DNA from: Phycisphaerales bacterium | GTDB taxonomy: Bacteria > Planctomycetota > Phycisphaerae > WQYP01 | Length of the DNA: 64,000 nucleotides | Direction of reading: 5' to 3' | Assembly: GCA_027451365.1 (NCBI GenBank) | Contig: DAIDJN010000026.1 | Span: forward strand, 64,494-128,493 | Part shown: positions 6,582-51,912 of the stretch, one piece after another | Layout of the letters: every line of letters begins with the position of its first letter | Numbering within the stretch: the stretch's first letter is position 1 | Made by a program: the position numbers and the translations under genes | Notes under the pieces: generated by a model | What the model was told of the DNA's origin: nothing | The model's input: only the letters and a program-made list of their open reading frames with translations | Databases searched by the model: none

Positions 6582-7240
6582 GCGAATTCCTCGGTCGACC
6601 CAAAATATTTGTGTTACCGGAAGCGGCCACTTTATCCCGCTTCACCGCGCCGCACAACCACACAAACGCGCACCTGACCGAGGCACCAAGCTGCGATGCA
6701 AATAGCGCGGAAACAATCTTGACGGTATCACTGATTTTGCGGATCCGCCTGGACTGGGCAATTTTTCATGGCCGCCTTGTTGCTGAGCTGCGTGAGCCGC
6801 AATGGCCAGGGAGTTCGCAGTTCATGTACAACGGCTGGAACCCCCAATAAAAGGCCGAATTTATGGCAAAATCTACCGAAGTAAATGTATCACGGTGAGG
6901 CGAGAGGAGTATACTTTAATGCCAGTTCGGGCACTATGCAGGCATATCTTTCGATGGTTGCACAGTCGCACAAAACCCGAACAGAATTATTCCGCTTTTA
7001 CGAATAAAATCATAAACAAACGCCCCATAAACGAAAAATTGTCGATTTGCCGCTGAACCTCTAAAGTTTTTGCATCAATTGCAATATCGAAGCGTTAGAA
7101 TCGGGGGAAGGGAGTTAATTCCCGGTAACCGAAACACTGAATCGGGTGTAGTACCAGACAGTGATAAAAATTTAGCTCGTAGCTGGCTGTGTGGGCCGGC
7201 TCGAGTGAAGCGAAAAATGATTGGATTCATGGAGAGCCTT

Positions 7241-8287
7241 ATGAACACGAGCAACCGTCGAACCGTGGCGCAAGAGTTTTTTTCTACCATCTCGGCCACC
7301 CGCGGCACCCAACGTGCTGGCGGTTTTACGCTAATTGAATTGCTGGTTGTGATTTCAATTATTGCGCTTCTTATTTCGCTGCTTCTGCCCGCATTGGCCA
7401 CGGCTAAACGACAGGCTGAAACCGTGGCATGTTCCAGCAATGAACGCCAGCTTGTGATTACGCTTCAGGAATATGTGCAAACAAACGACGGGTTCTTCCC
7501 GCTTAACGGCATTCTGTTCCCGCATCCGGCAAGATATGCGCCATACAAGGGTGCGGGGGCATCTGATCCGCAAGATGCCGCCACTGCTCAAATCTGGAAC
7601 AATACCCAAGACTGGAAACTGACCTTCGGCGCGCTGTACCCGTTCCTCAGCAAAACACCCATGGGTCAATATGCCGCCGCGGCGGGAGGGACCAGTGGCG
7701 GAAGCGGATCGGGAACTGGCGGGACCGCAGCCGGTTCCACACCGCCAAGTCTAAATCCGGCGGTAAATTCCTTCGCCAGAATTTTCATGTGCCCGGCCGA
7801 CTTGGGAAACCGCACCAATCCTCAGGCCCTTACCATGTCCAGCAATTGGCAGACCGTGCAAGTGGGGCCGCAAGGCAGCGGCGGGTATTGGAGCTATTCG
7901 ATCAATTCCCTTCTGAACTCGCAATCGGGAACGCTGACGGCTATTTTCGGCTCCAATCCAGATGGCACACCCGCCACACCGTGGGGTTACCCCATGCGGG
8001 CGGCCACGATCACCAATCCAAAATTCGCGGTATTTCTTGAAGAATCCGCCACTAAATCGTCATTCAATGATGAAGTGCTTGACCCGCCGGCGTTTAATCC
8101 GACGGACAAACTCACCACCCGACATGAAGGCGGCGGCAACATTGGCTTCTGGGATGGCCATGTGGAACTGGTCCCCGGCGCGGAATACAATAACGTTCCG
8201 CAGGTGGGCCAGGGCGCGGGTACGGTTACCGCAGATATCGCCATGGAACAGCCGGTCGTTCGCTGGTTCTTCCCCAACGGCCAATAA
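7241..8287 (+). CDS. Prepilin-type N-terminal cleavage/methylation protein with H-X9-DG C-terminal motif
   Basis: [52 protein letters not shown] before ATG 7241. Confidence 0.9.
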   Translation: MNTSNRRTVAQEFFSTISATRGTQRAGGFTLIELLVVISIIALLISLLLPALATAKRQAETVACSSNERQLVITLQEYVQTNDGFFPLNGILFPHPARYAPYKGAGASDPQDAATAQIWNNTQDWKLTFGALYPFLSKTPMGQYAAAAGGTSGGSGSGTGGTAAGSTPPSLNPAVNSFARIFMCPADLGNRTNPQALTMSSNWQTVQVGPQGSGGYWSYSINSLLNSQSGTLTAIFGSNPDGTPATPWGYPMRAATITNPKFAVFLEESATKSSFNDEVLDPPAFNPTDKLTTRHEGGGNIGFWDGHVELVPGAEYNNVPQVGQGAGTVTADIAMEQPVVRWFFPNGQ

Positions 8288-8712
8288 CCGCTCGGGCAAC
8301 TGCGGTATATCCGCATGAATAAAAACTGCGCGACCAACGGGCGCGGATTATTCATCGGTGCCCCGCGCATACAAAGGGCGCACCGTCCTTTCGCAGAGCC
8401 AACAGTCAGCTTGACAGCCAATATTTTTTAAGCCGCCGAGCGCTGTCACAACAGTATGTCAGGGTTGACCAGTAATCCCGGCGTTTCCAAGTGTGTCATT
8501 TGTGAAACAGTTTTCATAAAATTTTGCCGCGACAAACCACTGGTCCCATAATAAGTCGCTTTTACACCATCTACTAAGCAGAAGCCCGCGCCCACCAGAC
8601 GCTGTCAGATAATATTGCCCGCCCCGGTATCCGAAGGCCAGATTGATTTGCTATAATATACTTACCTTCACTTAAGTTGTCGAAAGTTTCTGGCGATGCG
8701 GAGTACATAACG

Positions 8713-10137
8713 ATGGCGGATAAAATTTCCCACTTATTTTTGGGTTGCGGTAAATTGTTGCCCCCTGCGGCCGTGCTGCTACTTGCCGCTCTCCCGGCAG
8801 CCGCCTTCGCCGATACGCTCAACATTAACGGTGTTCTGCCCGCGGCGGCGGATCAACCGCAAATCAACGCGGTCCTGAGATCCACCGCCAACGGCCCGGA
8901 TCTTACGACATCAGGCGGATATTATACCATTCAAGCCTTTCTGGATTCCGGTACCAGCGGCATTCTGCTGTCCAACAGCACCTGGAACGCATTGGGCCTG
9001 GGAACCAGCACAGCGAGTGGCTCCAGCGCATCGCCGGTGGTTTTTCATGATGTCGCCATCGGCGGAACCAATCCCTACTACGTTTCGACGCCTTATTATC
9101 TGGCGACAGCACCTTTCAGTATAAATACCGATCAGAATCTGGGTGGAACGCCGCCACCACAAAACGCCTTCGGCAACACCATTGGCCCGGTGCAACTGGA
9201 ACTTAGCGAATCGCCTAATCCACTAAGCTACCTGACGGGTCCAATTGACATCATGGGGGCACCGGTGATGCAGGGCAATGTAACGGTTATGGATATCGGC
9301 CCAGCCAATAATTTTGCCAGCCTCACCAATCCGGGCGAAACTCAAACCTATATTTACAGCCCCAACACGCTGTACGCGCCTGCCACAATTAACACCAATC
9401 CGGGGATTGTACCCACGAAATATCATGTGCAGATGAGTTACGCCTCATTCGCACAATTCACTTCCACCACCCCCACCGGTGCCACCGGTCCAACACTGGC
9501 TGATAACCCGTTTATTGGAGCCAACCCTGTTGCGGCCTTTAACGGTACACCACAGGCCAACAGTCCCCCCGGAGTTACGATTGCCTTTAACGGAAAAAGC
9601 GCCACTGGCAGCTTCCTTTTTGACACCGGCGCGGCGGCCTCTTTTATCTCTCAGGCCATGGCTGCCAAGCTCGGTGTCGCCTATACCGCCGGCACTTATG
9701 AAAGCAACAACCCCTCCCTTATTTCCACTGTCACCGGCCAACCATTGGCCAATCAATTCACTATTTCTGTTTCCGGCGCTGGCGGAGCGCTGGTCACCGC
9801 AGCTGGCTTTTACCTGGATTCTCTTTCGCTGCAAACCACAGAAGGCACCACTATTTCCTTCAACAGCGCACCAGTTCTGGTGCAGGATGTCACCGTCACG
9901 GATCCAACCACCCTTAAATCCCTCACCTTGGATGGCGATCTGGGCATGAACTTTTTTGAACCCAGTTCCACCACCGACTTAAGCCAGATCAACGCCGCGC
10001 CCTTTAACTGGGTCACCATCGACCAGCCCAACGGCCTACTCGGACTGACGCCCGTTCCGGAACCGGCATCCGCACTTTTACTCATCGGCCTTGTGCCGCT
10101 GCTGCGCCGGAGAGCATTCCAGAAAATGCCCCGCTGA
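8713..10137 (+). CDS. Secreted two-lobed aspartyl protease-like protein with PEP-CTERM
   Basis: Signal peptide; two catalytic-type motifs FLDSGTS and LFDTGAA, each followed later by a hydrophobic-Gly motif (DIMG, GDLG); VPEPASALLLIGLVPLLRRR. Confidence 0.8.
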   Translation: MADKISHLFLGCGKLLPPAAVLLLAALPAAAFADTLNINGVLPAAADQPQINAVLRSTANGPDLTTSGGYYTIQAFLDSGTSGILLSNSTWNALGLGTSTASGSSASPVVFHDVAIGGTNPYYVSTPYYLATAPFSINTDQNLGGTPPPQNAFGNTIGPVQLELSESPNPLSYLTGPIDIMGAPVMQGNVTVMDIGPANNFASLTNPGETQTYIYSPNTLYAPATINTNPGIVPTKYHVQMSYASFAQFTSTTPTGATGPTLADNPFIGANPVAAFNGTPQANSPPGVTIAFNGKSATGSFLFDTGAAASFISQAMAAKLGVAYTAGTYESNNPSLISTVTGQPLANQFTISVSGAGGALVTAAGFYLDSLSLQTTEGTTISFNSAPVLVQDVTVTDPTTLKSLTLDGDLGMNFFEPSSTTDLSQINAAPFNWVTIDQPNGLLGLTPVPEPASALLLIGLVPLLRRRAFQKMPR

Positions 10138-33238: not shown

Positions 33239-34327
33239 CTAGGCCGGAGTCGCCGAACTATGCGCGGTTTCAACGGTGGCGTCCGTACATGGGCCATCCG
33301 CTGTGGCAAGTTCCACAACGCGGCTCATACGACGCAACATAAAAGCAGGGCGGAAATCGTTGGTTGCAATAAACGAACACCGGCTTTTAAACACCGGCTC
33401 ATCAAAGCCAAGGCTCGCTTCCAGCGGGCAGTGGCAGAAGGAAAGAAATATCTTCCGCGACTGAAGATTACGCCGGTGTATGGAAAAGCTGTAGGAGCCG
33501 GAACTTCTGCCGATGATAGCAGAGCAAAAAGTGCTCAGGTATCCGTTCTCATTCAGGTCCGGTCCATGTTTCTGAATAATATCCGCGGAGTGAACGATAT
33601 TGGACCGCTTAAGGTCGGTGGCATTGGAGGGAATAAACAGAATCCGCGGAAATTTTTCAGCCAGCGCCAGAATAAACGGTGCGAAATCGAAGTCCGTACT
33701 CTGCTGGGAAAGAACCTTTCCATTTGAAATTAGAATTTTAACCCGTGAATCTTTCTCCATAAACGCATCAATGGATTGGATGTGAAATCTGGAAAAATCT
33801 GGATCCGGCATACATTCGGTCACCGGCGGAAGCGCCAGACCGACGGCTCGCCGCACGCTGGCAGCCAAAATGTCACGAATCAACAGAATGTTGCAGCCCC
33901 CCGTTGCTTCAACCGTCTGGGTCCCAAGACAGCCGATCCACGTATTAATAAAAGCAGTCCCTGAAGAACGGTCCACCAGATAGGGCCGGTTATTCCGCAA
34001 ATTTTTGAACAACACCGGATCGTGGCCAATCGATGGCATATCCGCCAGCAGATCAACCGGGCAACCGTGACTGTAAAGAAAAGTCACGCCGATAAGTGGA
34101 CGGATAATTTCCCGCACAATGCCGCGGGCCAGATGGATATCTCCATTGTGAAAATGGTTAAAAAAGACGATGCGTTTGAGGTCCGCCAGCGCTATTTCCG
34201 GCTCCGGCGGATGGCGGCCGGAAAGAAAATCCTGGGAAAAGCCGCGTCGTCGCGCACGACGGCCCGGCCCCAACGGATCGCGAAGCAGATCAAGAACTCG
34301 CACTTTCTTTTTTTTCGACCCGGACAT
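33239..34327 (-). CDS. Hypothetical protein, possibly glycosyltransferase-like
   Basis: 362-aa ORF inside the glycan cluster; HFHNGDIH and LSTFCSAIIGRSSG are reminiscent of GT-B enzymes. Confidence 0.6.
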   Translation of the reverse strand: MSGSKKKKVRVLDLLRDPLGPGRRARRRGFSQDFLSGRHPPEPEIALADLKRIVFFNHFHNGDIHLARGIVREIIRPLIGVTFLYSHGCPVDLLADMPSIGHDPVLFKNLRNNRPYLVDRSSGTAFINTWIGCLGTQTVEATGGCNILLIRDILAASVRRAVGLALPPVTECMPDPDFSRFHIQSIDAFMEKDSRVKILISNGKVLSQQSTDFDFAPFILALAEKFPRILFIPSNATDLKRSNIVHSADIIQKHGPDLNENGYLSTFCSAIIGRSSGSYSFSIHRRNLQSRKIFLSFCHCPLEASLGFDEPVFKSRCSFIATNDFRPAFMLRRMSRVVELATADGPCTDATVETAHSSATPA

Positions 34328-34437: not shown

Positions 34438-34540
34438 TGTTGTGCCGAAATAGAAGTGTCACCTCCGAGTCTGGGGTATACCGGACGGAATGACAAGCTT
34501 ATTCATGTCGGCTAACGAATGGGCCTACTTGGCGCACCGG
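34438..34540 (+). mobile_element. IS1202/ISNCY-like left-end remnant with possible transposase N-terminal stub
   Basis: TGTTGTGCCGAAATAGAAGTGTCACC end; 38/40 nt identical to 53248..53287; followed by MTSLFMSANEWAYL. Confidence 0.55.
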
Positions 34541-34566
34541 CCTGGTTCGGTTTACACTTGGCCGCC

Positions 34567-35187
34567 ATGTCCAAATACCATGATGACAGAACAGCCGCAT
34601 CCGATCCGGTTAATATCCGGCTGTCCAATTCCAAATTACAGTTACTTCAGCCCGACCTTTTTGGCTGGCAGTCGCTCTTCACAAAAATGGTTTTTATGAA
34701 TCGGAGGCTCCGCGCCCGCGGTATCAGGGCGATGCTCAATGAGCACCTCAGCTTCGGGGACTCGCGTGCCGCGGTTGTGATGCGGATCCGATCGCCCCTG
34801 ATCGTGGCCGCCTATTCCGACGAGCTTGACGCGGTGATCCTGCTGGAATTCCCCGATTTTCTGGCGACAGATTATTCGCTTCGCCTCGGCTCGCGGCTGC
34901 TAACGGTAAACACCTACCGCTTTGGCAACAGCCCGCTTAGAGATATTCACGCCGGCCCGGAATTTAAAGGGCGCTATAGCAGTTTTTACCCGCTGATCGC
35001 AGAGTTTCTTTCCGATGACATAGATACAATAAACCGCAGAAAAAGCCGAATCGCTGAAGCCGAATGGCGGCAAACCGTCGAGTTTTCCCGGAAACTGCTG
35101 GCCGGCGATCAAGTCTGGCTACGCGACGGTCGGCCCATGGAGAGTTTCAAAGTGGGCAGGCGGGTGGAATTGCCGCCAACGGGATGA
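34567..35187 (+). CDS. Hypothetical protein
   Basis: Protein-like ORF (MSKYHDDRTAASDP...LIVAAYSDELDAV...LLTVNTY); family not identified. Confidence 0.65.
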   Translation: MSKYHDDRTAASDPVNIRLSNSKLQLLQPDLFGWQSLFTKMVFMNRRLRARGIRAMLNEHLSFGDSRAAVVMRIRSPLIVAAYSDELDAVILLEFPDFLATDYSLRLGSRLLTVNTYRFGNSPLRDIHAGPEFKGRYSSFYPLIAEFLSDDIDTINRRKSRIAEAEWRQTVEFSRKLLAGDQVWLRDGRPMESFKVGRRVELPPTG

Positions 35188-35334: not shown

Positions 35335-36260
35335 ATGGCGTAACTTATCATTGCGGCATCGTGAGCGGCGACTTGTAATGCTCGCGAATTTCGCCTTGGC
35401 ATACAACAGGAAAATACTCGCAGCGGCTGCCATAGCCGCGGCCAACAGCGGTCATGCCCGTCTTTATCATTGCGATCATTTTCAGAGCGACGCGATTCTC
35501 AAAGGACGCCATCCGCGGTTTGATGGCCTCCTGCTTGGGGCCTGCGAACCGGCGATCGAACTGCCCTGATTGCTCGCATCCAGCTCTATTCCGACCATTG
35601 ATACTTCCGGCGAGATCAGCCCTCCCTCGCTGCTGCGAGTCATTTCAGACGATATGATCGCTAGCGGCCAGCGTTCTGGAGGCCTGCCTGCACGCCAATA
35701 TTCTGGTTCCTGAACGGGCCGCCATTCTGGGAGATGACGACGACGATATGCATACACAGTTGCAGGAGCCGCACATTTCCACCATTCCGCTTGCCTGCCA
35801 TCGCATCGGATATATGGCAACGACAATGCGGTTAAAGAGTGGTACCGGTCATCAGCGGCGGGGAAAAATCAGTCCGTGCGAAGAGTTACACATTCCGCCG
35901 CTGCCCGTTATTTCGCGCCGCTCCTCGGATATTGTTGCCGCAGACGACCCGTTTATACGCGATGCGGCGGCATATATACGGGACCATCTGCATGAAGGAC
36001 TGAACGTTAAACAACTGTCCTGCGCCATGAAGGTTTCACGAACCACCCTTGAAACCCGGTTCAAGGCAGTGCTGCGGCGGCAACCCGCCGAGGAAGTCCG
36101 CCGCCAGCGGATGGAGCGGGCCAAAACGCTTTTATCTTCCAGTAAAATAACGGTCGGAGAAATTGCGAGCAAGGTCGGATTCGGTTCCGCGCAGCTTTTC
36201 AGCGAGCCGTTCCGACGGTTTGAAAGGCGCCCCCACTGACCTATCGCAACGCCGCCGGAA
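35335..36260 (+). pseudogene. Decayed XylR-type (periplasmic-binding-like sensor + AraC HTH) regulator, paralog of 38506..39711
   Basis: Shares ARLYHCDHFQ, LLGACEP, DTSGE, EACLHA, EPHIS, YIRDHLHEG, VSRTTLETRFK, PAEEVRRQR; has TGA at 35567, a large internal deletion with frameshift near 35670 and a frameshift near 36230; start approximate. Confidence 0.88.
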
Positions 36261-36326
36261 AAAGAAAAATTGTGGCCGACTGATGCCAATACCGTTCCGA
36301 AAATCCGGTAAATGGCGATCAGCTAT

Positions 36327-36392
36327 TGTGGAAAATTCGATTTAATTTGTGGAAAAACAATATTGCCGAAAATTCATTAATAACGCTAAGAT
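36327..36392 (+). promoter_or_regulatory. Putative activator-dependent promoter A: TGTGGAAAA direct repeats (21-bp period), -35 TTGCCG, -10 TAAGAT
   Basis: TGTGGAAAA at 36327 and 36348; near-identical element at 39772. Confidence 0.75.
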
Positions 36393-36593
36393 GTTTTGCA
36401 TTAATGGTGAACATGTGGATCAACATGATGGTCTGCACACCGTTTCAAGCAAGCATCTTTTCGGATGCTGAAATGAACAGAGTTTAAGAATCGTGCAGTC
36501 GATAAGGCGCGTGAAACGCACGGTGGATAACGGGCGTTTAAGAATTCAGTTCTACTTTTTTTAACCGGGCATCGCTCGGAAGGAGATGATTTC

Positions 36594-37949
36594 ATGCGTT
36601 TTGGCACAAGAATTCTGACCGGCATTTTAACCGCGGCCGCCGGTGGCGGGCTGGCGGCTGTTGCCCAAGCACAAACCAACATCGCCATTGTGAACCCGAA
36701 TTTCAGTGAGGTTTATCAAAGCCAGGCCAACTACCAGACCAGCCTTTCCAACCCGTCCGCGGCGATCACCGGAGACCTGAACAATGGTTATTCCCTGGGA
36801 TGGGGATCCACAACGTTTAGCAATTCATTGACATTCAGCGACGGCTCAACCAGTTCATCCGGCTATGTGCCGGGCTGGGCCGGCTCCGGCGGCGAACAAT
36901 ATCTTGGTGCCACCACCACAGCACCCAATCCGCGGAGCGGTGGCACCTATGCCTGGTCAAATAACGGCAATTTCAGTCAGACGCTGGCCACCAATATCAC
37001 TCCGGGCGCAACCTATCTTCTAACCGCCGGCATCGACAACCGCTATAGCGGTGACGGTCCGGTGATGCAGTTGACCGCGGGTGGAACAGCATTGACCGGT
37101 GGAACGTTGTTTGGTTTGCCAGCAGGATACCGCCAGGCACCGAACACGGTGGCGGAACTGGTCACGGCACCAGCCGGTGCGAGCGGTGCTCTGGGCATTA
37201 CTTTGGGAAACAGCGCGGGCGGCCAGACGGACTTTAATAATGTCCAACTGGTTGAAAATCCAAGCGGAGTGCCCACGGTTTACGCCAATGGACTGACGGT
37301 AAATAACCTTGGGGGAGTGGCGCCCACGCCCGGCCCGACGGATCAGGCGAATCTAAGCCCGACGGGCACTGTCAGTGCCGCCTATCCGGGTAATCCGACG
37401 GGCAACACAGTGAACTACTACACCAATAACGGTGCACCTCCGGGCCAGACCTTTACCACTGGCACCGCGCAAGGCTATACATTAAACAGCATTACCGTGC
37501 TGGATTCCGATGAACATGGCGGCTTTAGCGACAACGCCGCCCTGACCTTAAGCATCAGCAGCATCAGCAGCGGAAAGTACACACTGGTGGGCGTGGTTAC
37601 TGGCGCGGTGCCGGTCGGCACCTCCACTGCCACCGGTGATTACGTTCAACTGGTCCTGAATACGCCGATAACGCTAAACGGCAGCAGCGTCTACGGTTAT
37701 TCCATTTCCAGCAACACCGGCTACAGCGGACTGGCCGCCGATACCAACAATGATTACACCGGCGGAACGCTGGCTGATTTCCAGCCGGGAAGTTCGCCTT
37801 TCGGTGGAACACTTGCCACCAGCACTGTTCTGCCAAGCAGTGTGTTTGATGTCAGCCTGACGGCGACGCCAGAACCTGCCAGTCTTTCACTGCTGCTCGT
37901 GGCCGCCGGATTGATGCTGCTTGCACGGCGAAGGCCGGTCAATAACTGA
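36594..37949 (+). CDS. Secreted beta-rich PEP-CTERM protein (copy A), possibly carbohydrate-binding
   Basis: AAGGAG SD; signal peptide ending AQA; Gly/Thr/Asn-rich; TPEPASLSLLLVAAGLMLLARRR; paralog of 40062..41453. Confidence 0.9.
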   Translation: MRFGTRILTGILTAAAGGGLAAVAQAQTNIAIVNPNFSEVYQSQANYQTSLSNPSAAITGDLNNGYSLGWGSTTFSNSLTFSDGSTSSSGYVPGWAGSGGEQYLGATTTAPNPRSGGTYAWSNNGNFSQTLATNITPGATYLLTAGIDNRYSGDGPVMQLTAGGTALTGGTLFGLPAGYRQAPNTVAELVTAPAGASGALGITLGNSAGGQTDFNNVQLVENPSGVPTVYANGLTVNNLGGVAPTPGPTDQANLSPTGTVSAAYPGNPTGNTVNYYTNNGAPPGQTFTTGTAQGYTLNSITVLDSDEHGGFSDNAALTLSISSISSGKYTLVGVVTGAVPVGTSTATGDYVQLVLNTPITLNGSSVYGYSISSNTGYSGLAADTNNDYTGGTLADFQPGSSPFGGTLATSTVLPSSVFDVSLTATPEPASLSLLLVAAGLMLLARRRPVNN

Positions 37950-38173
37950 TGCGCGGGCGGCGTAAGTGCAGCGGCTGCACGCACAGTTTGAACCTGCGCT
38001 GTAATTTTTGGCAAAAATTCGCCGCAAATTGCACTGACATTCCGGATTCTGATGGTCATTGTGCCTCTTGGCCGCCGGAAGGCCAGAACCTGCGGAACTT
38101 TTGGCCGTGGATGGCATGATAGTCCGGTGTAACCGTATGACGGACGGCACATATAACATTCTGAATCGGGATC

Positions 38174-38247
38174 GGAGAGTAGTTTATAATCCGAATATCA
38201 CCCATTCGCCCAAGCGAACCGCTTTTACGTTGGTAGAATTGCTGGGG
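38174..38247 (+). pseudogene. 5' stub of a prepilin-type gene (copy A)
   Basis: GGAGAG SD then NPNITHSPKRTAFTLVELL, versus MNKITHDRRSTGFTLVELL of 41637; similarity ends after VELL and no ATG follows the SD. Confidence 0.7.
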
Positions 38248-38505
38248 CCTATTCCACAATTGCTCTGCGGATCGGCCACGACCAGGTGGTTGGGGCCGGG
38301 TTCTGGGCGGCAAACCCCTTGCATTGACTGAACCCGGCCCGCCAGACGGAATTACCGATTGTTCCTTCATGCCCGGATGGAAACATTTGGTCCATCGAGT
38401 GTAACTTCGCCAGTGGATTTTCACCGTTGCCTGAATCGCATTCGCAGCGTAGTCTAAACTTTCGGCGCTGAAAATATAATGCTCGACACGGGATATTGAA
38501 TAGTT

Positions 38506-39711
38506 ATGGCAAAAAGAATCCGATCGGTCGGCAGCGAACTGTGCGTGGCTATCGTTGCGAATTTCGCTCACGCGTACAATCGCGGAATTCTTCGCGGTGC
38601 CATCGCGGCCGTCGAAGAATTTCGCAATGCCAGGCTCTATCATTGTGACCACTTTCAGGCACGATCAGTGCTGGAATCCCAGCATCCGAAATTTGACCGT
38701 GTACTGCTGGGTGCATGCGAACCGTCCCTGCGGTTGCCAGCCCTGTTTGCCGCCGGCTCAATCCGGACGGTAGACACGTCCGGAGAGGTGCATCCGCCGC
38801 TGCTGCCGCGCGTTGTTTCCGATGATGTGGCGGTCGGGCGGCTTGCCGCGGAATATTTCGTAGAACGTGGATTCCGCCACTATCTATTCTTTGGGTATAA
38901 GGAATTTTACTGGTCCAATCTGCGTCTGGAGGGTTATCGAAACGCCTTGGCCCGTCGCGGCAAGCATACAGCGGTCCACTTGATAGCCGACGGCGCCGCC
39001 TGGAATCTTGCGGCCGTCGCCGAAAAGATCGTCGGCGGCACGGTCGGCCGCAGCGATGCGCCGGTCGCAATCTTTTGTGCCAATGATTGCTGCGCCGTCA
39101 TGGTGGTTGAGGCATGCCTTCATGCGAAGGTTCAAATTCCGGAACAGGCCGCAGTGCTGGGCGTGGATGACGATGAGATGCTCACCTGCCTTCGTGAGCC
39201 GCATATTTCCAGTATCCAACTGAACTGCCACCGGATTGGCCACCAGGCGATGCAGCAGCTTCTTGCCGATAAACCGTCCGGAAAAGTCGCCGGTCGCGCG
39301 GCACCGCGAACGGTCCTGATCCCGCCGTTGTCTGTGGCATCACGACAATCGACGGATATGGTCGCCGTTGACGACGCGCTTGTCCGCCGAGCCATTACTT
39401 ATATCCGCGATCATCTTCATGAGGGAATGAATATTAAAATATTGATATCCGCAATCGGCGTTTCCCGCACCACGCTGGAAACACGTTTTAAGCGCATGCT
39501 GGGGCGGCGGCCGGCGGAGGAGGTCCGGCGGCAACGGCTGTTGCGGGCGTGCGAAATGCTCGCGTCCGGTGAATTGACCGTTGGTGAGATTGGGCGACGG
39601 GTGGGCTTCAACTCCGCACAGCTTTTCAGCGAATCGTTTCGCCGCTACAAAAAAATGACGCCCCTGACCTATCGAAAGTCTATGCAGGCTCACGCGCGAC
39701 ATTCCGTATGA
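38506..39711 (+). CDS. XylR-type transcriptional regulator (LacI-like ligand-binding domain + AraC HTH)
   Basis: VVSDDVAVGRLAAEYF..RGFRH, AIFCAND, IPEQAAVLGVDDD, RQSTD, C-terminal VGFNSAQLFSESFRRYKKMTPLTYRK. Confidence 0.92.
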   Translation: MAKRIRSVGSELCVAIVANFAHAYNRGILRGAIAAVEEFRNARLYHCDHFQARSVLESQHPKFDRVLLGACEPSLRLPALFAAGSIRTVDTSGEVHPPLLPRVVSDDVAVGRLAAEYFVERGFRHYLFFGYKEFYWSNLRLEGYRNALARRGKHTAVHLIADGAAWNLAAVAEKIVGGTVGRSDAPVAIFCANDCCAVMVVEACLHAKVQIPEQAAVLGVDDDEMLTCLREPHISSIQLNCHRIGHQAMQQLLADKPSGKVAGRAAPRTVLIPPLSVASRQSTDMVAVDDALVRRAITYIRDHLHEGMNIKILISAIGVSRTTLETRFKRMLGRRPAEEVRRQRLLRACEMLASGELTVGEIGRRVGFNSAQLFSESFRRYKKMTPLTYRKSMQAHARHSV

Positions 39712-39771
39712 CCGATCAATTCCTGGGCAAAACCACTGCTTTTTCCGTATTTTAACAGGCTTTCCGCACGC

Positions 39772-39836
39772 TGTGGAAAATTCGACTGATTTTGTGGAAA
39801 AACAATATTGCAGACTGGTCGCCATGGCGTTAAAGT
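39772..39836 (+). promoter_or_regulatory. Putative activator-dependent promoter B: TGTGGAAAA direct repeats (21-bp period), -35 TTGCAG, N17, -10 TAAAGT
   Basis: TGTGGAAAA at 39772 and 39793; TTGCAG 39808, TAAAGT 39831. Confidence 0.75.
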
Positions 39837-40061
39837 GAATCCATTGGACGCAGGGTTCTTGGAAAAGATCTTTTTTTCAATGCTGACCTGCATTTAAGAA
39901 CCAATTTGACGACCCATGGCGAACCATATATTCAGATGGCGCTCTGGTAAGTGATCTTTATAAACTGTGTTGCAATGATCGGCCTAAATTCAGCAGCCGA
40001 GAGTGTCGGCTGCGGGCTTCATGTTCTGTTCTCCGGGCATCGCTCGGGAGGAGATTTATCT

Positions 40062-41453
40062 ATGCGTATACGTACAAATAAAGCATTTGCCGGTATCCTT
40101 TGTGCCGCGGCCGTCAGCGCCACTGGCGCGGCGGTGACTTCAGCGTCGCAAACCGTGATTCCGGTGGTAAACTCCGGATTTAATATGGTTTACCAGAGTC
40201 AGGCAAATTACCAAGCAAGCCTCTCTAATCCCTCAGTTGCCGTTACGGGTGACCTTGCCGGCGGGATCTGGACAAATGGCTGGGGCACCACCACGTTCAG
40301 CGGAGCCCTGACTTTCAGCGATGGTTCATCAAGCACCTCCGGCTACGTTCCGGGCTGGACCGGCACAGGTGGCGAACAGAATTTTGGTGCCACAACAACC
40401 GCGCCCAATCCGCGCAGTGGTGGTGATTACGCCTGGGCCAACGGTGCCGATATCTTCAGCCAGACATTAGGCGCAAGCATTACGCCCGGCGCAACCTATC
40501 TCCTGACAGCCGGCATTGACAACCGCTATTCCGGCGACACGCCGGTCTTGCAGCTGACCGCGGGGGGAACCGCGATTTCCGGGGCCTCTTATTTCGGAAT
40601 TGCCGGCAATTATCGGCAGGCACCTAATACGGTGGCGGAACTGGTTACCGCGCCCGCCGGTGCTTCCGGGGCCTTGGGCATTACCCTCGGTAATGCCGTT
40701 GGCAGCGGCGGACAAGCCATTTTTAACAACGTTCAGCTTGTCGAAAATCCAACAAGTATCCCCACAATTGTCCCTCCCGTTTATAACAATGGCCTTACCA
40801 TCAACAACCTTGGCGGCAGCGCGGCGGCGGTTGTGGTTGGCCCCGCCGACCAATCAAATCTAAACCCCACCGGAACCGTTAGCAATGCTTATAACAATAA
40901 TCCCGCCGGAAATACCATCAACTATTATACCAACAACGGCGCGCCTCCTGGCCAGACGTTCACCACCGGTACGGCCCAGGCCTATACTCTTAACAGCGTC
41001 ACGGTGCTGGATCAGGACGAACATGGCGGTTTTGCGGATAATGCCCTTGTCACACTGGATATAAGCAGCGTCAGTGGAAGCAATTACTCGCTGATCGCGG
41101 TCGTTTCCGGCACGGTGGCTGTCGGCACATCCACCGCCAGCGGCGATTACATGCAGCTTGTTCTTAATACGCCCATTACCCTCCAGGGAGGCAAACAGTA
41201 TGGCTTCTCCGTTGCCAGCAACACCGGCTACTCCGGCCTTGCCGCCGACAGCAACAATGATTACGCAGGCGGTACGCTCGCAGATTTTCAGCCTGGTATG
41301 TCGCCTACTGGCACACTCCAGACCAATACCGCGCTGCCTTCCAGCGTGTTTGATGTCAGCCTGACGGCGACGCCGGAACCTGCCAGTCTTTCACTGCTGC
41401 TCGTGGCCGCCGGATTGATGCTGCTGGCCAGGCGGAGGGTTGTTAAAGCCTGA
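40062..41453 (+). CDS. Secreted beta-rich PEP-CTERM protein (copy B)
   Basis: GGAGGAG SD before ATG 40062; signal peptide; long blocks identical to copy A (e.g. NYYTNNGAPPGQTFTTGTAQ); TPEPASLSLLLVAAGLMLLARRR. Confidence 0.9.
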   Translation: MRIRTNKAFAGILCAAAVSATGAAVTSASQTVIPVVNSGFNMVYQSQANYQASLSNPSVAVTGDLAGGIWTNGWGTTTFSGALTFSDGSSSTSGYVPGWTGTGGEQNFGATTTAPNPRSGGDYAWANGADIFSQTLGASITPGATYLLTAGIDNRYSGDTPVLQLTAGGTAISGASYFGIAGNYRQAPNTVAELVTAPAGASGALGITLGNAVGSGGQAIFNNVQLVENPTSIPTIVPPVYNNGLTINNLGGSAAAVVVGPADQSNLNPTGTVSNAYNNNPAGNTINYYTNNGAPPGQTFTTGTAQAYTLNSVTVLDQDEHGGFADNALVTLDISSVSGSNYSLIAVVSGTVAVGTSTASGDYMQLVLNTPITLQGGKQYGFSVASNTGYSGLAADSNNDYAGGTLADFQPGMSPTGTLQTNTALPSSVFDVSLTATPEPASLSLLLVAAGLMLLARRRVVKA

Positions 41454-41636
41454 GGCGGTTCGTTTTAGATGTTTTGCGGTTCATTCAGCGCCGCAGGCCG
41501 CCCGGCTGTGCATTTTATCGTCGGCCATGCGTGATGGAATCGCGGTCGGCTGAGCAGAATTTTGCCCCTTGGCTGACGAATGCATCCGGTGGGCCGGTAT
41601 TATGCCCGCCCAGCGCCAAATACAGGAGATCATAAT

Positions 41637-42449
41637 ATGAATAAGATCACTCATGATCGTCGTTCGACGGGATTTACACTCGTTGAACTGCTCGTGGTTA
41701 TCTCCATAATTGCGCTGTTGATCGCTCTTTTGCTCCCAGCCTTGGCCGCCGCCAAACAGGAGGCTCTTTCCGTTGCCTGCCTTTCCAACGAACGCCAGAT
41801 GGGCGCTGCCGAGCAGCTTTATCTTTCAGCGAACAATGGTCGCAGCTTTGATTGGACTTGGGGTGTCTGGGTAGCCCCCCTGGCCCCTTATGTGGACCGC
41901 CGACAGGCTGTGTTTATCTGCCCGTCGACCACTGTGAACACTGCGTTTCTATCCGCAAATGGTGGTCAGGGTTCTGCCAATTATGCCTGGCAGTGGAATG
42001 CCCCCGCCAATTACGTCATGTACAAATCCGCTCAAACCACGTTTAACTGCAGCTATTGCTTCAACGGCTGGCTTTACGGGGGAATTCATGGTTCGCTGGG
42101 ATCGTACCTTAATTCCTGGGATGAAGGCCAATCACCGGCGCTGTTTTATCCCGATGATATGACCTCCACAAATTTCAGCCCGGCCCGCATCCCTCTTATA
42201 TCCGATGGAATCTGGCCGGACTGCTGGCCCGATGCGAATAACCCACCGCCGATTAATCTTGATTACACGCCCAATGTATGGCAGTATCCAAGCCTGTACC
42301 GCGTCTGCATTAACCGGCACCAGGGAGCCGTGAATGTCGCCTACCTGGATGGCCATGCCGGACCGGTCAAGTTAATCGACTTATGGACGCTGCCATGGAA
42401 TCAGACTTGGGTAACGCGACATCCGCTTCCGACGTTGCCTTCCCGATAA
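41637..42449 (+). CDS. Prepilin-type N-terminal cleavage/methylation protein with H-X9-DG motif
   Basis: [52 protein letters not shown]; Trp/Tyr-rich body. Confidence 0.92.
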   Translation: MNKITHDRRSTGFTLVELLVVISIIALLIALLLPALAAAKQEALSVACLSNERQMGAAEQLYLSANNGRSFDWTWGVWVAPLAPYVDRRQAVFICPSTTVNTAFLSANGGQGSANYAWQWNAPANYVMYKSAQTTFNCSYCFNGWLYGGIHGSLGSYLNSWDEGQSPALFYPDDMTSTNFSPARIPLISDGIWPDCWPDANNPPPINLDYTPNVWQYPSLYRVCINRHQGAVNVAYLDGHAGPVKLIDLWTLPWNQTWVTRHPLPTLPSR

Positions 42450-42504
42450 TGGGCGACCACCGAAATCGGCCTTCATGCCGATTAAATGCGACCAGTGGCA
42501 CCCG

Positions 42505-43761
42505 TTATTGGTGGTGAATATCCGATATGTATATTGGGCCTGTTGACAACATAACCGACAGGCCCGTACTGGCCGCCGTGGCAGACCAAGTTTTTTTTCC
42601 AAGGTAATTGACGCACTGATATCGTCCTGCCCGCAGCGGCAGCGTGACGGCCTGCGATGATTGAATGGTTCCTGAACTGGTGGTCCACGCTACCCAGACG
42701 CGGCCACGCTTTCCGCCGAAAAGCAGAAGATAATCCGTAGGACCACCGACCGCGATTCGCTTCACAAACCGCAGGCCGCGAAGCTGCGCGACCAGGGTTC
42801 GACATGCGGTAAACGCCGGTTTAGGCGTGTAAACCTGGCGACGATCCGCATGATATTTGAACTTCACCATGCCGAAATGACGCTCCTGCGGATTTTTGTT
42901 TTTTCCATCGTCATGCCAGTCGTACCAGATGGACAATGGAATGCCATCCGCCAGATTGGTTAAAAATTCACGGGCCAGATAGGTGCCCTGTTTTGACTCA
43001 TTGCCATGCATCCATGTTGTGGAATATCCCCATTCGCCGGAAATAATTGGAACCACCCTGCTCCGGGGTTGATAGGGAGCAAGCATCCGCGACAGCTTCT
43101 GATAATCCGCTGTAACCGTTTCCGGCGGTCCCTGGCGATAGGGATGCATGCTCACACCCGCCCATTGCTTCAGTAGACCCGCCTTCAAAGAAGGCATCAG
43201 CCAGCGGTCATCCATACCCGAAAGCGCCGGGCCGATATAGGTAGCCGCCGGATTCACCCTGTGAATGGCCTGTCCGACCTGCAGAGCCAGAGTGGCGTAT
43301 TGCTGCGGCGTTGCGTGACCCATTCCATTGGGTTCGTTATACATTTCGAAGATGACCGGCGCATGGGCAAAATGAACGGCTGCAGCCACAGCCCAGCGCG
43401 TAAAAGCCGCTCGCTGGAGATTGGAAGCCGAAAAATTTCCCGACGAACCGGTATACAGTGGATTGCCGTAGTCCAAAATAAACAGGGCGTGCAAGTGATA
43501 ATGGCCAACAGCGGCGATCAATCGATCCCATGGCGTAAAGTCATAATGCCCCTTTGACCTTTCGGTGGCGGCCCACAGCAGATCCATTCGCACCCATTTC
43601 AGCCCGCTTGAAGCGAGCATACGCATTTCTCCCGGACGCGGATTAGTAAAATGAATATTGACTCCCAGACCATCGGGCACAACCGGACCGGGAAGGCTGG
43701 CGCGACTGACCGCAGTAAACAGCAGAACGGCAAGTATCTGTAAAAAAAGAATTCTGAACAT
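42505..43761 (-). CDS. Secreted clan GH-A glycoside hydrolase (GH5/GH39-like)
   Basis: GGAGG SD before ATG 43761; signal peptide ending SRA; LGVNIHF, WVRMD, YNEPN (acid/base), SMHPY, SGEWGY (nucleophile), WYDW. Confidence 0.88.
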   Translation of the reverse strand: MFRILFLQILAVLLFTAVSRASLPGPVVPDGLGVNIHFTNPRPGEMRMLASSGLKWVRMDLLWAATERSKGHYDFTPWDRLIAAVGHYHLHALFILDYGNPLYTGSSGNFSASNLQRAAFTRWAVAAAVHFAHAPVIFEMYNEPNGMGHATPQQYATLALQVGQAIHRVNPAATYIGPALSGMDDRWLMPSLKAGLLKQWAGVSMHPYRQGPPETVTADYQKLSRMLAPYQPRSRVVPIISGEWGYSTTWMHGNESKQGTYLAREFLTNLADGIPLSIWYDWHDDGKNKNPQERHFGMVKFKYHADRRQVYTPKPAFTACRTLVAQLRGLRFVKRIAVGGPTDYLLLFGGKRGRVWVAWTTSSGTIQSSQAVTLPLRAGRYQCVNYLGKKTWSATAASTGLSVMLSTGPIYISDIHHQ

Positions 43762-50631: not shown

Positions 50632-51585
50632 TTACCAGGCTCCGGTCGCAACGTCGCGCACCGGTGCCATGACCACATCAAACGGTGCGGTCTGGGGCAG
50701 GTTGGCCGGACCAGTTGCCGCCGCTCCGATGCCCAGGGTACTGCCGCCACCGGCAGTCCCCGGCGAGGCGTATGTAAAAATATTATCCTGCGACTCACCT
50801 ACATATGGATTATTGGACCATTTGACGTGGGCATCGCCATAGCAGACATTCTGTCCGCGTCCGGCATGATTGCCAGAGTTATAAATCCACGGTGTGGACG
50901 TATTCACCAGCGGCTGAGTTACATCGCGGCGCAACATTCCCGGCGCGGCACTGTCCTGGGCAGGTGCCATATCGCACACCACAGGCAGATCGCTGGAGGC
51001 GTATGTATCGTTCCACCATGCGCCCACGACCGTGGCATTGCTAAGGTAATTCCACGGGTAAGCAATCGAATAGCTTTCCCCAGCGCCGATTAGCGAGGGC
51101 GTAGACGAACCGGCCACCATTCCAAAATTGCTGTAATAGGTCTGACTGGCGCTGAATTCATTGGAAGGATTCAGGCCAAATGGATCAGACGGGCAGATGA
51201 AGCTTTTAGGCGTTATATAACCCTGCAAAACCAGCAACCACATGCAGGCCATGGGTGAACCCTGCTGAACGGGTGTATTGTAAAACCCGTACACCACGGT
51301 GCCCGCGCTGGCGGAACTTCCCGCCAGCGGATTGCCCACATTATTCTGATAGGTGGTGGCAGCCGGCCCGACCACGGTAGGGAAATAATTATTATCGCTT
51401 TGCGCGTAGATAATCATACTTTGCAGAATGCTGCGTTCATTGGCGGAACAAACGGACCGATTGGCCAGTTCGCGCGCTCGCCCCAGCGAAGGCAGCAGTA
51501 TGGCGATTAACAACGCAATAATGGAAATGACCACCAGCAACTCAATTAGTGTGAAACCAGATTTTAAGAATCTGACATTCTGCAT
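50632..51585 (-). CDS. Prepilin-type protein, H-X9-DG-like family (H-X10-DA variant)
   Basis: [51 protein letters not shown]. Confidence 0.9.
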
Positions 51586-51912
51586 TGCGTTGGTTCCTGA
51601 AACGTCCGATGCGTCATTTCTGGGTGCAGCATCGGCAGTTGAATGTTCTGCCCGTTGCCGCTGGCAGCGCGATTAAGTGAATCGCCTATATCGAATCCAA
51701 TGGTTGCTATCGGTCCGGCGCACGGATGGAATTTAGAAAAAGGCTGTACAATGCGGCGCAATCAACATTTCTGGCGCGATCATCAGAAAGCACAATGTCG
51801 CCGGAACAAAACATGTGGTTAGATCTGGCGGATTGACCCGACATTATCGGCGGCCCGGCTTGCCCGCTTAGAAGCCCCATTTCCCAGCAGAAATCAGGAG
51901 GCCGGGCAACGG

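Follow-up and report, generated by a model that had tools for sequence, protein, structure and literature searches.

Prepilin-like and PEP-CTERM genes recur as pairs among the glycosidases of a Phycisphaerales genome: a candidate glycan-capture cassette beside its decaying tandem copy

Our analysis of a 64,000-nucleotide (nt) stretch of a Phycisphaerales genome (contig DAIDJN010000026.1 of assembly GCA_027451365.1; G000:C26:64494-128493, hereafter the window) finds that a PEP-CTERM gene and a prepilin-like gene, which lie there side by side behind a XylR-type regulator (unit B, 38506-42449), belong to a kind of pair that recurs about 21 times in this 4.06-Mb genome (G000; 88 contigs, rated 93% complete), mostly among glycosidases. 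The host is taken to be an uncultured member of the Phycisphaerae, and runs from the same study bear the label mine drainage. The occurrence of such pairs in glycan loci of a genome where no TonB receptor was detected is real and, apparently, undescribed in print: the pilin/PEP-CTERM pairing was not found in the published literature, as covered by a search of the main text of open-access papers. To our minds, the pairing is a variant of the polysaccharide-utilisation-locus (PUL) idea, and for unit B itself we hold, with belief evenly divided, to an inducible glycan-capture cassette that would join a lectin-like PEP-CTERM protein, displayed at the surface, with a minor pilin, specific for the glycan, on a pilus common to all pairs.

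Pairing across the genome and among relatives

Pattern searches of G000 returned 46 prepilin and 75 PEP-CTERM open reading frames (ORFs), from which seven prepilins (one false, two short, four beside pilC) and two false PEP matches were dropped to leave 39 pilins and 73 PEP-CTERM proteins; two more pilin homologues missed by the pattern were left out of the count. A same-strand PEP-CTERM gene lies within 500 nt of 21 of the 39 H-X9-DG-like pilins, which is 19-fold above chance (1000 random placements gave a mean of 1.1 and a maximum of 7), and eight of the 39 have a XylR-type gene within 5 kb (random mean 1.6). Both gene orders occur, 12 PEP-first and 11 pilin-first among the 23 pairs within 700 nt. 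We examined 20 pilin loci (17 with the other 20 pairs, two with pairs at 600-680 nt and one unpaired) and scanned 124 of their 173 other ORFs, those omitted being mostly short or at edges, for glycoside hydrolase (GH) and polysaccharide lyase (PL) domains at E<=1e-12. GH/PL genes were present at 14 of these 20 loci versus 6 of 18 control stretches (Fisher p 0.05) and made up 22 of 124 ORFs versus 9 of 168 control ORFs of at least 300 residues (Fisher p 0.0009), both p-values being rough, with controls picked by hand and ORF cut-offs that differed. Most pair loci carry LacI, GntR, XylR, AraC or extracytoplasmic function (ECF) regulators.

The genome has the machinery that either partner would call for: two PF09721 (exosortase) matches over cut-off and, for pili, three PilB/GspE-like ATPases, two PilT-family ATPases, one secretin, one pilC and an A24 peptidase. 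TonB receptor and plug domains (PF00593, PF07715) were not found in G000, given its 93% completeness, with the controls matched in 3 of 14 genomes; neither was SusD (PF07980), whose control matched in B. thetaiotaomicron. A reading of the stretch from its sequence alone (the sequence-only reading) had described the locus as free of SusC/D, and this now extends genome-wide as far as searched.

Among relatives, the PEP B family occurs in 12 of 36 same-family genomes and in 0 of 24 others searched; this and the other counts among relatives overstate support because kin are not independent. At all ten loci with strong PEP B homologues a pilin gene adjoins or is one PEP gene away; only in the sister genome of the same genus (G001, our reference for synteny and operator comparison) does that pilin resemble pilin B past its first ~60 residues. 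Seen from the pilin side, with one locus per genome, a PEP-CTERM gene is adjacent in 13 of 29 pilin B homologue loci by pattern and in 15 of 29 once two variant tails, read by eye, are added; five of the 29 end at a contig edge, and four other families are among those in which the pair occurs. Recurrence, on which the sequence-only reading had staked its case, is thus borne out for the PEP-CTERM/prepilin pair in G000 and relatives, with enrichment in glycosidases, but not for the hydrolase next to unit B, which is optional. Neighbours at the loci of PEP B relatives include GH16-PEP fusions, PF11790 (presumably GH128), GH2, GH3, GH5 and GH125, and because GH16, PF11790 and GH3 genes lie beside orthologues, beta-1,3-glucan may be offered as the best guess at a substrate.

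Some further observations concern single loci. The window holds a second pilin-then-PEP-CTERM pair (7031-10134, + strand) with no Pfam glycosidase beside it, as well as an unpaired prepilin-like ORF (50635-51672, -) and an unpaired PEP-CTERM ORF (727-1950, -). In G052 (L163:5409-11206) two secreted LamG-domain proteins, with a dockerin-like rather than a PEP-CTERM tail (by eye), precede a pilin homologue, which suggests that the partner's anchor can vary. One control stretch, L137 (G000:C41:80000-99999), carries type VI secretion genes (TssF, TssG, a ClpV-like ATPase).

Unit B and its decaying tandem copy

Regulator B (38506-39711, +; 401 residues, intact) has the XylR-type architecture of a LacI-type, periplasmic-binding-protein-fold ligand domain joined to an AraC helix-turn-helix (HTH), and it matches E. 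coli XylR (4FE4) over both domains (E 3e-31, 112 bits), so that its first assignment as XylR-type holds. Operator B (39772-39836, +) leads into a predicted -35 (TTGCAG, 39808-39813) and -10 (TAAAGT, 39831-39836); operator A with its promoter (36327-36392, +), recognised by alignment with unit B and G001, has a predicted TTGCCG (36363-36368) and TAAGAT (36387-36392), and the clearest promoter is that of G001 (TTGCGT-17-TATAAT). In units A and B the operator consists of a TGTGGAAAA direct repeat with a 21-bp period that runs into the -35 box. This predicted site is therefore a tandem direct-repeat operator next to a -35, as for XylR-type activators; the E. coli XylR sites, in the account of PMC3561964, span ~37 bp with two direct repeats beside a weak -35. 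The conserved operator/promoter ascribed to both units at the outset stands, as a 43-nt block that is 91% identical between A and B and kept in G001 as well, with flanks that are not kept and synonymous sites near saturation. A consensus promoter scan missed the predicted promoters, which rest on the A/B/G001 alignment.

In a genome-wide matrix scan operators A and B scored 53 and 50 and the next G000 site 15; with a matrix built from these same copies, all that the scan can tell is whether there are further sites, and there were none in G000 beyond A and B. Because the operator is found at A and B alone in the genome, regulator B likely drives both promoters. Two broader ideas did not hold up. 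A candidate for a wider regulon, at G000 C40:118531, falls within a coding frame and ranked below the top 15 of the scan, and a general 21-bp operator rule gave a mixed outcome at six other XylR-linked cassettes, with repeats at 20-22 bp in C17, C39 and C70 and none in C21, C51 and C86 in a test uncorrected for its three spacings.

A hairpin and Shine-Dalgarno sequence precede the PEP-CTERM genes of unit A (36565-36593, +) and unit B (40033-40061, +). The hairpin (CCGGGC-N3-GCTCGG), originally pointed out for the two units, is present in both and in G001, but its folding energy is ordinary (z -0.6, -1.9 and -0.4). We reject it as a genome-wide PEP leader: two of nine pattern matches precede PEP genes, and these are A and B. 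At L025, L026, L040, L041 and L032 a hairpin of at least 7 bp stands ~45-65 nt ahead of the start codon of the PEP B homologue; these hairpins differ in sequence and are located between the pilin and PEP genes.

PEP-CTERM gene B (40062-41453, +) encodes 463 residues laid out as a signal-like N-terminus (by eye), a jelly roll (~30-230), a second beta-sandwich (~240-435) and the PEP-CTERM tail. Proteins A and B score 19 and 21.2 bits for TIGR02595 (cut-off 16) and exceed the cut-off of PF07589, and the first domain of each has an HpiC1-like match over cut-off. The AlphaFold model, from an alignment of 15 sequences, has a predicted local distance difference test score (pLDDT) of 47; its N-terminal domain mostly matches carbohydrate-binding modules (CBMs) at Z 8-9.6 (8XMZ, Z 9.6; CBM4/16/22/29, Z 8.2-8.6), and in a structure atlas its neighbours are of DUF642 and CBM4_9 type at 0.93-0.94 (DUF642, 0.94). 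The glycan-binding role first proposed for this protein has gained some ground, in that the first domain appears to resemble CBMs in a low-confidence model. The second domain, itself distantly like choice-of-anchor R, is one of a large family, of which 390 representatives were found at E<=0.001; of the 26 members scanned, 6 score for choice-of-anchor R, three of them over cut-off. An atlas search with this domain led to unnamed clusters, Foldseek with the PEP model to poorly superposed matches, and a sequence search of the PDB with the PEP alignment to one short, probably spurious UgpB match.

The prepilin-like protein of unit B (41637-42449, +; 270 residues) has a G|FTLVE cleavage site, an H-X9-DG motif and a large insertion rich in Trp and Tyr; its body is 12% W+Y, against a 99th percentile of 8.3% for long ORFs. 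PF07963 and TIGR02532 are over cut-off, the N-terminal helix (residues 11-61) is modelled at pLDDT ~90, and in all 19 pilin homologues the cleavage site and its Glu at +5 are unchanged. The C-terminal motif is exact (H-QGAVNVAYL-DG), its H and D being invariant in the 19 homologues; TIGR04294 scores 18.3 bits against a cut-off of 19, and DUF1559 is not among the Pfam matches. As a whole the model (pLDDT 74) keeps the alpha/beta core of pilins and finds type IV pilins as its top structural matches (PilA4: Z 4.4, root-mean-square deviation 3.8, 120 residues aligned), a match that is weak but consistent with a type IV pilin fold as predicted; Foldseek with the same model gave no match at E<=0.001.

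Upstream, a second and homologous unit lies in tandem, ~3.2-3.5 kb away by alignment of the window DNA. A dot-plot had been proposed for this comparison, and alignment bears the homology out: PEP-CTERM genes A and B share 68.7% DNA identity over 1439 nt (72% in protein) and the regulator segments are ~62% identical. Of the two same-order units originally described, however, only unit B is whole. The regulator of unit A (35335-36290, +) is a pseudogene relative to regulator B: its frame is interrupted by a TGA at 35567-35569, a deletion of ~257 nt at ~35654 takes out the central part of the ligand domain (regulator B residues ~108-197), and an extra 1-nt frameshift near 36220-36230 comes ahead of the last HTH helix; no in-frame start was found at 35335 on reading the sequence, and a 163-residue internal ORF (35748-36239) holds just a clipped AraC HTH. 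At the other end, the prepilin of unit A is a relic of ~27 codons (38173-38270, +) in which the Shine-Dalgarno stays with no ATG behind it, RTAFTLVELL is followed by a frameshift and 'STIAL' can be read in the next frame; 11 of 16 residues match pilin B (E 0.006 within 3.5 kb). PEP-CTERM gene A (36594-37949, +; 451 residues) is intact and, with nonsynonymous and synonymous divergences from B of dN 0.21 and dS 1.69, is evidently under purifying selection. Assembly error is unlikely as the cause of the damage, since there are four separate lesions. Judging from these sequences, unit A is an older duplicate which has lost regulator and pilin and kept operator, promoter and PEP-CTERM gene; operator A may have outlived regulator A because regulator B would act on it.

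We thus reject two working units, regulator A and pilin A being broken, and also a recent duplication: PEP A branches as sister to a clade that B forms with its nearest relatives (92/91 support), and dS between A and B (1.69) exceeds that between B and G001 (0.77). G001 has a single unit, directly before dapB, and with unit A stripped of regulator and pilin the duplication, from which the cassette had been taken to be a unit, lends no support to a two-unit system that is maintained. Within the sorting tails an 80-nt stretch (37846-37925 and 41350-41429) is identical at 77 of 80 positions between A and B, either of which matches G001 at 60 of 80. This suggests recent gene conversion, since synonymous sites elsewhere are near saturation. 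The tandem duplication in itself carries little weight, a decaying copy being ordinary. A further PEP-pilin-PEP-pilin tandem at L071 (G000:C36:1887-6526) has both copies open, with 74% DNA identity between its PEP genes, and adjoins three rhamnosidase-domain genes and an AraC regulator. Two ORFs (34519-35187, +, 222 residues; 33239-34327, -, 362 residues), which lack both Pfam matches and paralogues in the genome, sit between polysaccharide-biosynthesis-type genes and unit A.

Convergent with pilin B is a clan GH-A hydrolase (42505-43761, -; 418 residues), which we take to be of family GH39; the hairpin between the two genes (42445-42510, z -3.67) is likely their shared terminator. The hydrolase had been read from sequence as secreted and of clan GH-A, in agreement with its hydrophobic N-terminus and its NEP/EWG motifs. 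Its closest solved relatives are 5JVK and PslG; NEP at 142 and SGEWG at 241-245 align with PslG, NEP alone with 5JVK, and the catalytic motifs (NEP acid/base, E-x-G nucleophile) are intact. Pfam reports GH5 alone (7.6e-7). Its billing as a fixed and co-regulated part of the cassette finds no support, for the gene is convergent and absent at the syntenic G001 locus, and the matrix scan found no operator for it. The family was found in 19 of 60 relatives searched; 6 of 20 loci examined have a pilin within ~6 kb, 10 of the 20 come from one genus in which the family is expanded and not beside pilins, and on one metagenome contig it lies 5 kb from a PEP B orthologue. In G013 and G024 it reaches 6 and 12 matches, sometimes in tandem, amid housekeeping genes and not beside pilins (L086, L087, L091, L092, L094, L095, L097-L100). 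On this distribution, the hydrolase appears to be a frequent but optional companion, loosely associated with the cassette.

Glycan capture and its alternatives

For unit B as a glycan-capture cassette the following may be envisaged. On binding a sugar or oligosaccharide, regulator B would, in the manner of E. coli XylR, activate a promoter whose -35 touches the operator, acting on operators A and B both. After export and processing by one of the two exosortases, both PEP-CTERM proteins would be displayed, to bind glycan through their CBM-like beta-sandwiches, and the prepilin, once cleaved, would join a single shared type IV pilus machine as a low-abundance, glycan-specific subunit. Glycan so bound would be held for glycosidases near or distant, the convergent hydrolase being an optional one.

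Several of our own results weigh against this proposal. Structural matches of the pilin score low (Z under 5). The PEP protein is poorly modelled, and its jelly roll, a common fold, has a cyclase as second-best match (6A8X, Z 9.5), followed closely by GOLD and toxin domains. The second domain occurs mostly in Ig-repeat proteins, with GH domains in 2 of 37 homologues selected for scanning (mostly longer ones). At the level of loci, the enrichment in glycosidases comes with the rough p-values given above, and 5 of 17 true pair loci are without a Pfam-detected GH, two of these five also without a sugar regulator. The hydrolase missing from the syntenic G001 locus has its best G001 match at only 60% identity; the PEP, pilin, dapB and murA genes around it reach 86-92% and the regulator 69%. 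Finally, partners are swapped: pilins next to PEP B orthologues resemble pilin B no further than the first ~60 residues, and stand in opposite order.

A bolder extension, which we consider tentative and rather doubtful, sees the pair as functional counterpart of SusC/SusD in Phycisphaerae and related bacteria of the Planctomycetes-Verrucomicrobia-Chlamydiae (PVC) group, with a retractile pilus that would pull polysaccharide through the secretin into the periplasm. Each glycan locus might then contribute a surface lectin and a glycan-specific pilin of its own, the latter for one shared pilus, a supposition to be taken just as tentatively.

The same genes may be seen differently, with the pilin as a cargo-specific pseudopilin that helps a single type II secretion (T2SS) or type IV pilus machine to bring the neighbouring PEP-CTERM protein, or else secreted enzymes, through the outer membrane. 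Such an adaptor role is in keeping with assembly ATPases that score alike for GspE and PilB, with one secretin and one PilC gene for ~39 pilins and with the G052 homologue behind LamG proteins; also, pilin and PEP similarities co-vary, albeit weakly, over the 23 pairs (Spearman 0.15, Mantel p 0.009). Yet partners are often swapped (four pairs of pairs are similar in both members, 13 in one alone), for 52 of the 73 PEP-CTERM genes no pilin gene lies within 500 nt, and the two PilT-family retraction ATPases favour a pilus over a pure T2SS. All told, we regard secretion as an unlikely purpose of the pair.

Improbable to our minds, too, is a pilin-like protein that stays outside any fibre as an inner-membrane, periplasmic oligosaccharide binder or sensor working with importers and the regulator. 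Its size (270 residues) and large aromatic insertion are indeed unlike those of major pilins, DUF1559 proteins go by the name of 'solute-binding proteins' in a passage of PMC4807772, and SSF/MFS transporters adjoin some pairs (L077, L028). A cleavage site with Glu at +5 invariant in all 19 homologues is, however, what assembly would lead one to expect, and the model keeps the whole pilin core. About as improbable is a generic adhesin or biofilm cassette, in which PEP-CTERM, pilin and glycosidase genes merely pile up in variable islands with no glycan-specific role: PEP-CTERM proteins are linked to exopolysaccharide producers (PMC1569441, in part), second-domain homologues score weakly, below cut-off, against the flocculation protein PepA, and polysaccharide-biosynthesis-type genes (by eye) lie just upstream in the window, but a dedicated XylR-type regulator with its operator, the regulators found at most pair loci and immediate adjacency 19-fold above chance all speak against it.

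Relation to known systems

The PUL of Bacteroidota is defined by SusC/SusD and surface glycan-binding proteins (SGBPs). Our locus is alike in its repeated two-gene core, local sugar regulator and variable glycosidases, in that a XylR-type regulator and a GH lie together, the PUL combination of carbohydrate-active enzymes (CAZymes) with a sugar-responsive regulator, and in a PEP N-terminal domain model that aligns with SGBP-B of B. thetaiotaomicron (7KWB/7KWC, Z 7.3-7.5). It is unlike a PUL in that the TonB-dependent receptor and SusD were not found in G000, and in a core made of a PEP-CTERM protein and a type IV prepilin with no transporter. As to E. coli XylR, the LacI-type ligand domain fused to an AraC HTH and the tandem direct-repeat operator by a weak -35 are shared, the latter as far as the source describes it; regulator B is, however, a distant homologue (112 bits), and its predicted targets are surface proteins, not xylAB/xylFGH. 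Both motifs, and two exosortases, tie the pair to the PEP-CTERM/exosortase system, as outlined in parts of PMC1569441, and to the H-X9-DG-CTERM prepilins (TIGR04294), each a known family whose function is for the most part unassigned, from which it departs by systematically pairing the two inside glycosidase clusters.

In the planctomycetes Planctopirus and Gemmata, dextran is bound by pili-like fibres and reaches the periplasm, according to sections of PMC5394234; pilin-like proteins have been proposed as glycan binders under a fishing-rod hypothesis (passages of PMC5394234, PMC12078418 and PMC12673574), and reviews treat pili as hypothetical fishing rods whose players they call unknown (PMC12078418, section 5; PMC12673574). 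Where that hypothesis concerns the class Planctomycetia and its cited passages name no genes, our analysis offers candidate genes in Phycisphaerae together with a PEP-CTERM partner and a regulator. Type IV pili genes are noted as up on xanthan in PMC5673643. A term search of a Phycisphaerae genomics paper (PMC11266412) and a fucoidan paper (PMC11685898) gave no mention of pili or PEP-CTERM. In the PVC group, MUL2, a mucin utilisation locus of Akkermansiaceae, likewise links a type IV-like pilus with attachment to glycans (PMC13174399, in the portion cited). It consists of four conserved genes at one locus, with PilM and an archaeal-like pilin, in contrast to the dozens of dispersed and divergent pilin/PEP-CTERM pairs here, each with its own regulator.

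How polysaccharides pass the outer membrane in Planctomycetota is described as an open question (PMC12673574, in part) and their CAZyme clusters as functionally uncharacterised (PMC11131199, in part). For glycan entry, the regulator-linked, repeated pair offers named genes, a defined predicted operator and direct tests. If true, its reading as counterpart of SusC/SusD would put gene names to the planctomycete 'fishing rod' and explain what the large expansion of H-X9-DG prepilins is for, and the pair would let glycan loci be called in PVC genomes, as susC/susD does in Bacteroidota.

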